A DNA stretch of 64,000 nt from positions 203,174,001 through 203,238,000 of the forward strand of contig OX597815.1 in the NCBI GenBank assembly GCA_951406725.2. The letters are read 5' to 3'. The stretch comes from Octopus vulgaris. Lineage: Eukaryota. A model generated the notes under the pieces. That model worked only from the letters and a program-made list of their open reading frames with translations, had not been told where the DNA came from and searched no databases. The position numbers and the translations under genes are program-made. Positions 2,216-39,345 of the stretch are shown here, one piece after another. Position 1 is the stretch's first letter. Every line of letters begins with the position of its first letter.

Positions 2216-3008
2216 ATCAATAAATGGTGGGGTTGTGTTGACCGCACGTGGAGAAATGATAAGTAAGGAAAATTTTTTAAAAATGCAGAATGCTCAAATG
2301 AAAGAAAATTTTAATAAAATGAGAAAATGATAAAATATATAAATATATATATTTATTCAACCGGTTTTCGTCAATGTATGACTTGTCAAGAATATTTATG
2401 TTTTAAGAAGTTTTTTAAAAATTAGAAAGGGGAAAAAAAGAAAATTGCAATGTTTTTTGTAAAAGAATAATGATAAAAATGTACAAAAATTAAAAAATAA
2501 GTTCTCCGATACATTGTGAGTTCGTTGTGTATCTTGAGTTTTATGGTTGTTTACCAAAAAATTACCTTGAGGTGTTAAGATCCAAAGGGATTAAGAGCAT
2601 GTGATGTGTTGTGTTGTTAAATTCAGCATGTTGCAGGAATTTAACAACACAACACATCACATGCTCTTAATCCCTTTGGATCTTAACACCTCAAGGTAAT
2701 TTTTTGGTAAACAACCATAAAACTCAAGATACACAACGAACTCACAATGTATCGGAGAACTTATTTTTTAATTTTTGTACATTTTTATCATTATTCTTTT
2801 ACAAAAAACATTGCAATTTTCTTTTTTTCCCCTTTCTAATTTTTAAAAAACTTCTTAAAAACATAAATATTCTTGACAAGTCATACATTGACGAAAACCG
2901 GTTGAATAAATATATATATTTATATATTTTATCATTTTCTCATTTTATTAAAATTTTCTTTCATTTGAGCATTCTGCATTTTTATAAAAAAAAATTTTCC
3001 TTACTTAT
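2216..3008. mobile_element. ~370-bp-arm near-perfect inverted repeat; probable Penelope-like pLTR with inverted copy
   Basis: 2259-2624 is the reverse complement of 2637-3008, with 12-nt spacer agcatgttgcag. (TA)n lies on both sides and each arm has an HHR-like motif. Confidence 0.75.
2868..2908 (+). ncRNA. Candidate minimal hammerhead ribozyme, U3-A8 core (mirror copy 2354-2394 on -)
   Basis: tattc-TTGACAA-gtca tacat tgac-GAAA-accggtt-gaata: stem I 5 bp, stem II 4 bp, palindromic stem III with one extra A. Confidence 0.5.
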
Positions 3009-3266
3009 ATATATATATATATATATATATATATAGAGAGAGAGAGAGAGAGAGAGAGAGAGTAGAGAGTACAACAAAGCACCAATGTTTACTGGAAATA
3101 GCAGTAGATACATTTAGGACGCTATAGTAAAAGCTTCAATGGGTATATACTGCCAAAGACGTGCGAGGGCAGAAAACAAAAGATTTTGTCTTACCTCTAG
3201 GAAGAACATTATATTAATTGACACTGCGAGCGTTGTTCATTCCTTCACATTGTGCTTGTTTACATA

Positions 3267-3688
3267 CTCTTTTTACTCTTTACTCTTTTACATGTTTCAG
3301 TCATTTGACTGCGGCCATGCTGGAGCACCGCCTTTAGTCGAACAAATCGACCCCGGGATTTATTCTTTGTAAGCCCAGTACTTATTCTATCGGTCTCTTT
3401 TAGCCGAACCGCTAAGTGACAGGGACGTAAACACACCAGCATCGGTTGTCAAGCAATGCTAGGGGGACAAACACAGACACACAAACACACACATACATAT
3501 ATATATATATATATATACATATATACGACAGGCTTCTTTCAGTTTCCGTCTACCAAATCCACTCACAAGGCATTGGTCGGCCCGGGGCTATAGCAGAAGA
3601 CACTTGCCCAAGGTGCCACGCAGTGGGACTGAACCCGGAACCATGAGGTTGGATAGCAAGCTACTTACCACACAGCCACTCCTGTGCC
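3267..3688 (-). mobile_element. tRNA-derived SINE, family A (~400 bp, internal TA/TG microsatellite)
   Basis: Matches other copies in the window; A/B-box-like head tggctgtgtggt...ggttcagtcc; (taaaagag)n tail. Confidence 0.9.
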
Positions 3689-4134
3689 TATTTGTTTTCT
3701 AGTTACAATGTCCTAACTAATACATATACTAATTTTCTATAATTTTTTATTTATTTATTTATTTATTTGCATCTACCCGTATAATGATCATAATAGCTTG
3801 TCCTTTGCGTTTAAATTTAACTGACCAATTATAACGAGAGCTGGACTTTGGTCAGCCCCATTAGGGGCAATAGGTTGTCGGTCTTTACAACATATCAGTG
3901 AGTAAATAATTGTAATTAACTGATGGGCACTTTATTATGATAAACTATTAAATAGTACTATTATCATAATCTCAAGAACTATTATGATTACTTCAAAACG
4001 ATATGGCACTATCACTCCCTCTATTTCAAGACCTATTGGCGTATCCCGTAATGGTGATTTTTTTTATTTTACTTTTTTATTACTTATACACCCTGTTACC
4101 CCCATAGAAAAATTAACCCACCTATTAATATGTT

Positions 4135-4400
4135 AAGGCGGCAAGCTGGCTGAATAGTTAGCACGCCGGGCGAAATGCTTCGCGATATTTAGTCTGCCGT
4201 TACGTTCAAATTCCACCGAGGTCGACTTTACCTTTCATCCTATCGAGGTCGATAAATTAAGTACCAGTTACGCACTGGGGTCGATGTAATCGACTTAATC
4301 CGTTTGTCTGTCCTCGTTTGTCCCCTCTGTGTTTCGACCCTTCTGGGTAGTAAAAATATAGATATTTAGTCTGCCGCTCCGTTCTGAGTTCAAATTCCGC
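4135..4400 (+). mobile_element. SINE family B with short internal re-duplication at its 3' end
   Basis: aaggcggcaagctggc...cctttcatcc..ggtcgataaattaagtaccag; reverse complement of 30089-30319. Confidence 0.85.
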
Positions 4401-5049
4401 AACGGTATGATTTAAATATATAAAGCCTTTCATCTTCTTTTCTTTTCTTTTCTTTTCTTTTCTTTTGTGTATTTTTCTTCACTCTGATTAAGCTCCATGT
4501 TCCATATCGGATGTGTTACAAATATGTTGAATATTATTTTTTGAATTTTCAATGGCAATAGCGTAGAACAATGGAAGCAGAAACAGCTGTTAGATTGGAT
4601 ACAATCTATTTGTATTAAAAAGTAATAATTGAAGTTAGTCAGAGAGAGAGAGAGAGAGAGAGAGGCAATGACAAGAGAACAAGTGATTGTAAGCGTAATG
4701 TATTGAATGTATATGCAATACTCAGCACGTCCCTACAAATAAAACAGAACCAATGAAACTTTAATTGGGACTGACATCCAGATGTAACTTCTTGAAGGTT
4801 TACTTCTTTTTCAACTGTTCTACTGGAATTTTCTGAAAACGACAGAAAAAATTAAGCCGTTAAGTTAAAATCAATTTTCTTTAATGCGCTGTATTTTGTC
4901 TCACATTATGTCTACTGCACGAAGTGTATCAATCTAAAATTGTGCTGTGTATATTCATCGATCAGCATCTTTATCAAGTAAGATATTTAACAGATTGTAG
5001 ATATATGGCATCGGTTCCGTTTTTTGAAATAGTAATTTTTTATGAAATA

Positions 5050-36592: not shown

Positions 36593-36641
36593 AAAGCCTT
36601 GTGAGTGGATTTGCTAGACAGAAACTAAAAGAAACCCGTCG

Positions 36642-36862
36642 TATATATGTACGTATGCATGTATGTATGTATGTATGTATGTATGCATGCATGTATGTAT
36701 GTATGTATGTATGTATGTACGTATGTATATATGTATGTATGTATGTATGTATGTATGTATGTATGTATGTATGTATGTACGTATGTATGTATGTATGTAT
36801 GTACTATGTATGTATGTATGTATGTATGTATGTATGTATATATATATATGTATGTGTGTGTG
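36642..36862. repeat. (TATG)n
   Basis: Direct array. Confidence 0.95.
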
Positions 36863-37067
36863 TTATTGCTTGTTGGATAGCTAACAGTGCATTTTGTTTA
36901 CATATTTTTAATTAATTCAGATTCCCTCTCTTAACGCATGCGCCTTAATACAATTAATTCACGTCTGTTTAATCGAAACATCTGTTTATAAAATATGGAC
37001 AAACGACAGACAACATTAGCTAAAGAGAGAAAGAATGAAGAAGATTATACTTCAAAAAATAAGCATA

Positions 37068-37476
37068 GGCGCAGGAGTGGCTGTGTGGTAGGTAGCTTCT
37101 CTACCAACCACATGGTTCCGGGTTCAGTCCCATTGCGTGGCACCCTGGGCAAGTGTCTTCTACTATAGCCTCGGGCCGACCAAAGCCTTGTGAGTGGATT
37201 TGGTAGACGGAAACTGAAAGAAGCCCGTCGTATATATGTATATATATATATATATGCGTGTGTGTGTTTTTGTGTCTGTGTTTGTCCCCTAGCATTGCTT
37301 GACAACCGATGCTGGTGTGTTTATGTCCCCGTTACTTAGCAGTTCGGGAAAAGAGACCGATAGAATAAGTACTGGGCTTACAAAAGAATAAGTCCCGGGG
37401 TCGAGTTGTCGATTAAAAGGCGGTGCTCCAGCATGGCCGCAGTCGAATAACTGAAACAAGTAAAAGAATAAAAGAG
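37068..37476 (+). mobile_element. SINE family A
   Basis: Full copy. Confidence 0.92.
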
Positions 37477-38967
37477 TATGTACTGCATATAGGATGTGTC
37501 AGCCTCCAAATAATTGCATTGTAGCCACTTCAGTAACAGGTGAACAAGATGGAATGTGCTTCCAAATAATTCGCATGAAGCTGGCTCCAAATGACTCCAA
37601 CCTTCATTTCATTACAGAAAGAGTTCAGTTCCCTGTAAGGCCGTCCTACTCTCTGATAATAAATAATGCACACAGGCAGACATTTAACAAAATTGTAAAT
37701 AGATAACATTTAATCAATATATATGAATAAGTTTAATCTTTTTAATTTGTCTTTTATTTCCTTAAACTATGAAGCGCATTATATCTGTCAAATTTATTAC
37801 AAGGAAGTAAATAAGCAATACCTTATCAAACGGCAGGTTATCAAAATAGATTTTTGAAACTCCTTGCTTGTGTTAAACATACTAACATCATGTTTTCAAA
37901 TGTGCTGGCTTATACCGAGGAATATTTTTCACGGGTCCTGCTAGTATTTATAGTTATATAACATTCTTCGATTTATCTCTTCTTATTCTTTTCCTATGTT
38001 ATCTTTTATTCATTTCAAAATTCTCCGCTTTTCTTTCCTTTCATTTCATTTTTTCTTTCGTCCTTCCTTATTTAATTCCTTACATTTTTACAACGCTTCC
38101 TACCTTTCATAGTCTACGGGAGTGAATGCTTATACTGTATTTAGCCGGCAAAGAGTCTTTAGCTACTCAGTTGCAAAGTGAGCCCAAAATGTTCCTTCCT
38201 TTTACATTTGTCTTTAAACGAACTCGGCAAGGTAACATGCCCTTATTTTATCTTCTAATTCTGATTTATGACAAGTCTCTGCTAGTTTGATTCTTTGTAA
38301 CTATTAATAACCTTTTATTTGCTCAATGCGTTTCCTTCTCGTTTCCTTTTTCTCCATCAATTCTTACTTTGCATACTTTTCTCTCTTCTACCCCCCCCCC
38401 TTCTTCACTTCTCTTATTTCTCGTCGCTCGATATCCCACACTCTTTCTTACTATCACAATTTCTAACTCACCGTCACTAACCCACATTTCCTCCGTCTTT
38501 TATTGGTGTTTCTATAATCTCAAATACCAGTCCGCTACCAGATAGGTCTGATTTTGATACCACTTCGCAAAAACAGTTCGGATGAGTTAGCAGAAAGGCT
38601 ATAACTTCGATTCGCATAGATTTCATGTTTACGTGTTCATAATGTTTTTCTATGTTTTATGTGTAATATAACATCAGTACACATATTCGGTTTCGAATCT
38701 ATTCTTACATCAACTTGTCGCTGAATTTTTGAAACAGATGTAAATTTACTACTTTAATTGTTACATTTATGGCTACGTTTGTATGACATTTATTGTAAAC
38801 TATATCAAATATATAATCTTATATATACATGTTTGTGCATCTGTTTTACTTTTATTACATGTTTGAGCTAGCTACATTGCTTGTAGCCAGCTCTTTATCT
38901 TCGTAATTATGTTACCCAGATTAGAAAGCATTCTCCATATTCTAGCATCTACTCAACCATAAGGAGA

Positions 38968-39345
38968 ATATATATATATAAGAAAATGGAGGAACACATT
39001 AGTTGGTTTATCAGCTTTAGGATATTAGAATGTTGTCTTATTTAATTATCAAAACTACAACCAAAATAACATACATATATACAGTATAAAATTCAATACA
39101 TTTAAGATAAGAATACAAGTAATTATTAAAAACATAATATACATTGTTAGAATCATTAAATTTCTTACAGCTGTTATATATATATATATATATATATATA
39201 TATATATATATATATATATATATATATATATACATAAAATAATAAGGGTGAAAAATTGAATATTAATTTAATTAATATCAATTTAAAACCAGTGGTCTGG
39301 CACATACATATAATAGGGATTTCCACTTACAGGACATCCCTTTTA
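38968..39345 (-). mobile_element. Two Penelope-like terminal fragments around a (TA)n array
   Basis: 38971-39175 starts on - at AACAGCTGTA (HHR stem III) and shares its end with 14258-14310. 39241-39302 resembles the reverse complement of 15210-15275. Confidence 0.5.

Follow-up and report, generated by a model that had tools for sequence, protein, structure and literature searches.

The stretch of Octopus vulgaris DNA analysed here (contig OX597815.1, positions 203,174,001 to 203,238,000; 64,000 nucleotides, hereafter the window) raises two questions: do several short, mutually unrelated inserts in this AT-rich, microsatellite-laden animal DNA carry minimal hammerhead ribozymes, and what mobilised them? 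The initial annotation had described at least four such families, together with five weaker cases, as non-autonomous derivatives of Penelope-like elements (PLEs) that favour (TA)n and whose variant cores a strict CUGANGA search would miss. Overall, the inserts were most likely mobilised by PLE proteins, and one of them, insert F, probably represents a very abundant, likely non-autonomous family of about 205 bp in which a G3-C8 core is the family state. By architecture, the motifs are partly confirmed as PLE minimal hammerheads, with cleavage predicted.

We scanned the window for type I hammerheads with a strict descriptor that replaced CUGANGA by a Watson-Crick 3-8 pair, required a palindromic stem III and permitted one extra base after A9. 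Four folds scored at least 9, namely 18219 (minus strand), 14917 (plus), 2873 (plus) and 2389 (minus), whereas 60 block-wise dinucleotide shuffles averaged 0.2 such folds and never held more than 2. A relaxed scan returned 13 matches in total, six of them with a score of at least 9, including 19574 (minus) and 56131 (plus); the corresponding mean over 100 shuffles was 0.19, with a maximum of 2. The fold at 18219 scored 15.5, and none of the 100 shuffles contained a match of 14 or more. The concern that similar folds might arise as often in shuffled sequence was therefore not borne out. Nevertheless, since the score was devised after the sites had been seen, and since 2873 and 2389 belong to one insertion, the excess is real but smaller than it appears.

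These matches define four main families, which we call inserts F (the 18176 site), A (2868), B (14911) and G (19523/20098). The three-way junction formed with stems I and II in type I order was present in the folds of all four, above shuffles, and a blastn comparison (word size 7, E at most 0.05) found no sequence common to them. None has the literal CUGANGA core: the cores are GUGAACA in F, UUGACAA in A and CCGAGGA in B, and the two copies in G are each one change off canonical. The 3-8 pair is G-C in F, U-A in A and C-G in B and at 19574, and is broken at 20105. All four families have the G10.1-C11.1 pair; an extra unpaired base follows A9 in F (a G), in both copies of G (19574 and 20105) and in a weaker insert, D, and is missing from A and B. 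GAAA, a palindromic stem III and a UH cleavage site are found in F, B and G, and A has an extra A or G17. Rfam gave no hammerhead among the best 150 of 296 matches, and microsatellite matches dominate those listed. The idea of one hammerhead architecture in unrelated inserts thus survives for four families above chance, but the 19523/20098 copies are damaged and most of the weaker cases add little.

The highest-scoring fold lies in insert F, with the following features:

18036..18237, minus strand: insert F, one copy (202 bp) of a short and very abundant repeat, with a G3-C8 hammerhead near its 5' end (depth plateau, loose ends, target duplication)
18176..18226, minus strand: minimal type I hammerhead of insert F (strict and relaxed scans, folding, family differences)
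18022..18035, plus strand: target-site duplication, left copy, an exact 14-bp repeat of 18238-18251 adjoining the insert
18238..18251, plus strand: target-site duplication, right copy, the exact 14-bp repeat adjoining the insert

Stem I of this hammerhead (18226-18220 with 18182-18176) has 7 bp and leads into the core GUGAACA at 18219-18213 and the extra unpaired G at 18212. Stem II (18211-18207 with 18197-18193) has 5 bp, opens with a G-C pair and carries a 9-nt loop II at 18206-18198. GAAA follows at 18192-18189, then a 6-nt palindrome at 18189-18184, which gives a weak, all-AU stem III, and U17 at 18183, so that the predicted cut falls between 18183 and 18182. The predicted minimum-energy fold contains stems I and II (z -3.0), and the F hammerhead is predicted to cut RNA.

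We then asked whether the unusual core belongs to this copy or to its family, using contigs from four public sequencing runs, which come from four studies with four organism labels and were picked from 24 runs matching 17640-18850; the best-matching run was omitted as a possible source of the assembly. None of the matching runs is registered as RNA, and eight runs presumed to be RNA contain roughly a tenth of the sequence words or fewer. The numbers of contigs aligned over the F region were 15695, 9247, 13405 and 5948. Summed contig depth reached 0.3-3.7 million over 18050-18213 in all four runs, against flank medians of 6-56; the ratio of 5e4-1.5e5 is not a true copy number and is therefore read only as "very abundant". 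The depth plateau covers bins 18009-18254 in every run. Loose ends pile up at 18025-18035 and 18227/18237 in all four runs, with low agreement (0.44-0.54) that is lost within about 6 nt, suggesting a self-contained unit of approximately 205-210 bp. At the 3' end, loose ends consisting of TA repeats occur at 18025 in three of the four runs. Joints between opposite strands connect many inner positions with 18227-18237 and so mark inverted truncated copies against the 5' end, and go-back joints mark partial tandems.

Family differences were listed at frequencies of at least 15% at high depth, and the seven top-ranked ones (33 rank lower) are at 18064, 18072, 18137, 18170, 18199, 18201 and 18205. 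The last three all lie inside the 9-nt loop II; among the differences listed, none falls in the core, the stems, GAAA or the palindrome. This clustering involves 3 of 3 differences within the 51-nt motif (p 0.004) and 3 of 7 over the whole element (p 0.002). Diverged copies are common, as 24-42% of the aligned F contigs have an identity under 90% or just 90-95%. Because the listed differences spare the core, GUGAACA is the state of the family and not decay of the 18036-18237 copy. The G3-C8 core and the stems are constant family-wide in the contigs of these four related organisms.

Both ends of the F family also carry a short inverted motif (18036-18050 and, from loose-end letters, just beyond 18237), which could have been fixed as the remnant of a tiny 3' copy in inverted orientation. 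A separate search with an 18-nt F motif gave no viral matches, and its 31 metagenome matches, without BLAST similarity to the window, were all rejected as chance.

The other three main inserts are composed as follows:

2216..3008, unstranded: insert A, two inverted arms standing head-to-head around a centre near 2630, with a (TA)n array on either side (self-BLAST palindrome 2259-3008)
2216..2258, minus strand: one-sided AC-rich extension of 43 nt, resembling a PLE "tail", on the left arm of insert A only (alignment)
2868..2908, plus strand: imperfect minimal hammerhead, core UUGACAA (U3-A8) at 2873-2879, with the mirror core at 2389-2383 on the minus strand (scans, alignment)
14365..15286, unstranded: insert B, an inverted 5'-truncated copy at 14365-14584 (minus) plus a partial tandem, 14585-14743 = 15128-15286, period 543, with a (TA)n end
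14910..14992, plus strand: minimal hammerhead, core CCGAGGA (U4C) at 14917-14923 (scans, alignment, folding)
18978..20248, unstranded: insert G, an inverted copy from 19678 to 18978, split by a short interspersed element (SINE) at 19115-19500, plus a partial tandem, 19680-19769 = 20139-20228, period 459
19523..19581, minus strand: damaged minimal hammerhead, core CUAAUGA (G5A) at 19574-19568 (alignment, relaxed scan)
20098..20156, plus strand: damaged minimal hammerhead, core CUGAUUA (G8U) at 20105-20111 (alignment)

The arms of insert A share 368 identities, with 1 mismatch and 12 gaps, and (TA)n arrays lie 2 nt from both ends. Its hammerhead can be read in two ways, with one surplus A in the GAAA strand or with a bulged C and G17; cofolding predicted a double-hammerhead geometry with G17 paired. 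Its U3-A8 core is a PLE variant already in print. The B hammerhead is as well formed as that at 18219, with GAAA at 14974, an 8-nt palindrome, C17 at 14985 and a 7-bp stem I; its predicted minimum-energy fold contains stems I and II (z -3.0). Its unconstrained cofold yields a predicted double hammerhead, and position 9 is a U in the inverted copy. In G, the copy at 20105 combines G8U with one stem I mismatch. Since the two G copies are damaged at different positions (G5A and G8U), the core of this family was probably canonical. As a family state, therefore, the variant core can be upheld for GUGAACA only: UUGACAA and CCGAGGA are each seen in a single insertion, on its two arms, and the family at 19523/20098 probably had no variant core.

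The five weaker cases, at 7724, 11899, 15500, 21026 and 39165, fared worse. Three of them lie in inserts:

11808..11990, minus strand: insert D, with a (TA)n end and a hammerhead-like motif at 11934-11899 with three defects; 5' end set by eye
15466..15576, unstranded: insert C, a short head-to-head inverted pair with the 3' half of a hammerhead only (the 15500 site)
38977..39175, minus strand: insert I, between TA arrays, starting inside stem III and hence with the 3' half of a hammerhead only (the 39165 site)

The motif in insert D (11930, minus) has A6U, a mismatched stem II and a non-palindromic stem III; its score of 3.0 is common in shuffles (9 observed against a mean of 4.4), which places the 11899 case at chance level. 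The 15500 and 39165 sites comprise the GAAA-palindrome-UH half alone. We rejected the 7724 site, where 7736 (minus) has CUGAUGA without GAAA, and the 21026 site, where 21036 (plus) has a core, stem II and GAAA without stem III or stem I. Four of the five weaker cases add little. The 21026 site is held by a 487-bp insert at 20696-21182, which lies within a SINE and has a target duplication of 12 bp; by eye it is nearer to the 3' end of a long interspersed element (LINE) on the minus strand than to a hammerhead element. The relaxed scan also recovered a further, decayed minimal hammerhead beyond the range of the initial annotation, at 56125-56172 (plus, score 9.0), with the core CUAAAGA (G5A) at 56131, an extra A, GAAA at 56153, a near-palindrome, UC and a 6-bp stem I.

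The anatomy of the insertions bears on the second question. Inverted 5'-truncated copies stand head-to-head in A, B, C and G, as revealed by self-comparison and alignments; B and G add their partial tandems, and the one-sided tail at 2216-2258 is a single case. A (TA)n array of at least five units lies within 3 nt of five of the nine inserts (binomial p about 0.01 at a 17% background, with insert ends set by eye, partly from the arrays themselves), and 8.4% of the window is within 50 nt of such an array. The preference for (TA)n is therefore only partly borne out, with just two of the four main inserts (2868 and 14911) next to such an array: insert F has an AT-rich target 1.2 kb from the nearest such array, and insert G is flanked by mixed TA/TG repeats. 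We also observed that unrelated insert 3' ends (3008, 14365, 15280, 11808, 38977 and 14306) have a pyrimidine run and CTTA or TTTTCTTA just before TA repeats, which suggests a shared priming rule. The 3' ends of 38977-39175 and 14216-14312 are related (85% over 68 nt), and both stop at TA repeats.

By the tests run, the inserts are neither autonomous PLEs nor classical retrozymes. We propose that transcription of the F repeat would come from read-through or start in an adjacent tandem unit, and that a PLE protein combining reverse transcriptase (RT) and GIY-YIG, supplied in trans, would nick AT-rich or (TA)n DNA. Target-primed reverse transcription of the RNA would then start at a fixed position some 145 nt downstream of the cut site, and jumps between templates would account for truncated copies placed head-to-head and for the partial tandems. 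The F hammerhead itself would cut slowly, either as a dimer via the palindromic stem III or with the assistance of protein. F copies retain the whole uncut motif and about 20 nt upstream of it, so the template was probably mostly uncut (or tandem or circular) RNA; such a template would allow a G3-C8 core of partial activity to persist, with the 3-8 pair kept. In addition, having U17 and not C17 would keep a G3-C17 trap from forming, by extension from the C3-G17 trap described in part of PMC3884650.

Several results weigh against this account. Pfam matched no RT or GIY-YIG domain in the open reading frames (ORFs) searched, which were 103 of 146 candidates near the inserts and 142 of 156 longer ones elsewhere, with sensitivity limited by short, decayed frames; therefore, the window shows no sequence link to an autonomous PLE, and the PLE connection made in the initial annotation is supported by architecture, namely the inverted copies, partial tandems, the tail and the 14-bp duplication. 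Among the F differences listed there is no compensatory stem change, that is, constancy and not covariation, so that selection is not separable from the recent amplification of one master. The differences were listed only from 15% up, and strongly divergent cores may have been lost through clipping of their contigs. F has short inverted termini, and its extra base is a G, whereas the published consensus calls for H there. Moreover, predicted energies do not favour the dimer of this F copy: two monomers reach -27.6 kcal/mol and an extended duplex -32.7, against -25.4 for the double hammerhead.

The G3-C8 motif might accordingly be a dead relic, in which one master with a non-working hammerhead was amplified and constancy reflects descent instead of selection, a scenario compatible with a PLE origin. 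The missing covariation and the weak stem III of F would fit, as would the reports, in passages of PMC11167929, that hammerhead mutants leave insertion in vitro unimpaired and that an engineered G3-C8 pair is only partly active. On the other hand, a double swap that preserves the 3-8 pair is unlikely to arise through neutral decay, the listed differences cluster in loop II and leave the core and stems untouched despite the many diverged contigs, and U17 would, as argued above, avoid the trap. We consider this scenario possible but doubtful. It is less probable still that the inserts are merely truncated ends of autonomous PLEs, the so-called solo pseudo-long terminal repeats (pLTRs), instead of self-propagating non-autonomous families. 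Most solo minimal hammerheads are interpreted in this way in passages of PMC4209133; A, D and I resemble 3' ends whose priming took place at (TA)n, with 5' breaks that vary and with a tail, and for A and the inserts at 11899 and 39165 an origin as truncated autonomous PLEs is just as plausible. The F contig counts also favour unique flanks, and a shared upstream body was possibly under-counted as a result. However, the loose ends of F are concentrated at 18227/18237 in all four runs with agreement gone so soon beyond them, and B and G repeat at periods of 543 and 459 nt without a coding match. The term non-autonomous thus suits F, with its sharp family ends, and B and G, with their short ORF-less tandem periods (14585-15286 and 19680-20248), but not securely A or the inserts at 11899 and 39165.

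Two further explanations have little in their favour. Classical non-LTR (long terminal repeat) retrozymes spreading via circular RNAs would agree with monomer sizes of 200-540 nt, which overlap or approach the reported 170-400 nt, and with the descent from PLE pLTRs proposed in parts of bioRxiv 10.64898/2026.07.22.740005. Nevertheless, the window contains no array of two complete same-strand hammerhead units, the motifs are minimal and not canonical, and the copies end away from the cut site, making this reading very unlikely. Finally, F could be a miniature inverted-repeat transposable element (MITE)-like DNA element or an ordinary SINE whose fold is coincidental. Its 202-bp size, its abundance and the short inverted motif at both family ends (loose ends at 18237) point in that direction. 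Against this, the 14-bp duplication surrounds an F copy without one terminus, the combination of a short fixed duplication with intact terminal inverted repeats was not found, the inverted 5' junctions vary, there is no A-rich or tandem tail, and the fold score was unreached in 100 shuffles. A coincidental fold is hence barely credible, and mobilisation by PLE proteins remains the reading that we prefer.

The window holds other repeats as well. Self-comparison revealed nine copies of one SINE-like repeat of about 420 bp, 75-94% alike, one of which (19115-19500) is the copy that interrupts insert G:

3261-3691, 16618-17023, 19115-19500, 20312-20695, 34404-34834, 35806-36251, 37064-37482, 53752-54175, 63334-63769: SINE-like repeat copies (self-comparison)

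The sole Pfam match above the cut-off among the ORFs searched was a helix-turn-helix remnant of a Tc1/Tc3 transposase at 33765-34022 (minus; PF01498, E 4.7e-10), and further Tc1/mariner remnants were seen by eye near 12100-13100, 31915-32880 and 58430-59700. An inverted pair of about 290 bp (83%) without a hammerhead match lies at 56562-56854, and four short tandem units with TA repeats between them lie at 57770-57950. The region 60780-62246 (minus) is GC-richer, with long stop-free frames and no Pfam match, and by eye is a decayed LINE; within it, 61806-61895 resembles 8381-8470 by self-comparison.

Much of this picture is already published, including many PLE-linked minimal hammerhead families, U3-A8 cores and non-autonomous derivatives. 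The solid addition made here is that G3-C8 occurs naturally as the fixed core of a short, very abundant family in four organisms. More tentatively, and with somewhat less than even confidence, we suggest that a working natural G3-C8 hammerhead exists at tens of thousands of copies, spread by a 205-bp non-autonomous, Penelope-driven element in four related animal species, with sister families exploring other cores (U4C). If this is true, G3-C8 would be among the most abundant ribozyme variants of these genomes, invisible to descriptors based on CUGANGA and U3-A8. If F cuts, it would provide a third covariant, evolutionary confirmation of the 3-8 tertiary pair, and a large class would have been missed by genome hammerhead counts. 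Since many diverged F copies exist, selection for cleavage of PLE hammerheads becomes testable, cleavage being dispensable for insertion in vitro.

How do these inserts compare with known systems? A literature search for hammerheads in octopus found nothing relevant, and the main-text passages of a 2026 Octopus vulgaris repeat annotation (PMC13282606) list Penelope families without the word "ribozyme". For natural G3-C8 in print, only engineered cases were found; G3-C8 or U4C may be listed by Lunse et al. 2017, on small PLE hammerhead variants, or by Arkhipova et al. 2017, on Terminons. Passages of Perreault et al. 2011 (PMC3088659) report natural U3-A8 covariation and a natural U4C in a viroid, weak in vitro, both of which occur here; G3-C8 is not named in those text passages, figure 5 excluded.

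The closest relatives by architecture are the metazoan PLE minimal hammerheads of Cervera and De la Pena 2014 (PMC4209133), which, in the parts of that paper considered, amount to thousands in a genome, belong to many families and mostly occur singly or as neighbouring pairs on opposite strands. They share with the present inserts the type I order, the short stem I, G10.1-C11.1, the palindromic stem III, the extra base after A9 (F, G and D), U- or AU-rich flanks, many unrelated families and solo or opposite-strand copies, and they include a U3-A8 class like the variant at 2873. G3 or C4 occurs in none of the 56 representatives aligned in its Fig. S3, and U3 in 3, whereas here G3-C8 is the state of the F family, C4 is found at 14917 and no linked RT-endonuclease ORF was found. 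For the insertions, the parts of Craig et al. 2021 (PMC8557442) that cover PLE insertion anatomy describe the same inverted 5'-truncated copies, partial tandems, one-sided tails, microsatellite targets, including the (TA)n bias of Neptune and Naiad, and short non-autonomous derivatives such as the Chlamys element MRC1; unlike the inserts here, Naiads and most Chlamys are described there as lacking canonical hammerheads. Non-LTR retrozymes, in the parts considered of PMC7229834 and of the 2026 preprint deriving animal retrozymes from PLE pLTRs (bioRxiv 10.64898/2026.07.22.740005), are likewise short and non-coding with a type I hammerhead and a proposed PLE origin, but those form tandem arrays with canonical hammerheads and circular RNAs, whereas the present copies are dispersed, minimal and variant.

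The most informative comparison is with PAc, the Anolis Poseidon element of Frangieh et al. 2024. In passages of that paper (PMC11167929), its hammerhead cuts only with protein, the C3G/G8C mutant partly restores cleavage, and uncut RNA is the main template. PAc and the inserts here have in common the swapped pair (in the mutant), an AT-rich target, an AC-rich tail, a template of uncut RNA (probable for F) and an insert end slightly more than 100 nt downstream of the hammerhead. They differ in that F has no ORF starting at stem II, and in that the swap was engineered and partly active in PAc, whereas in F it is natural, with predicted activity.

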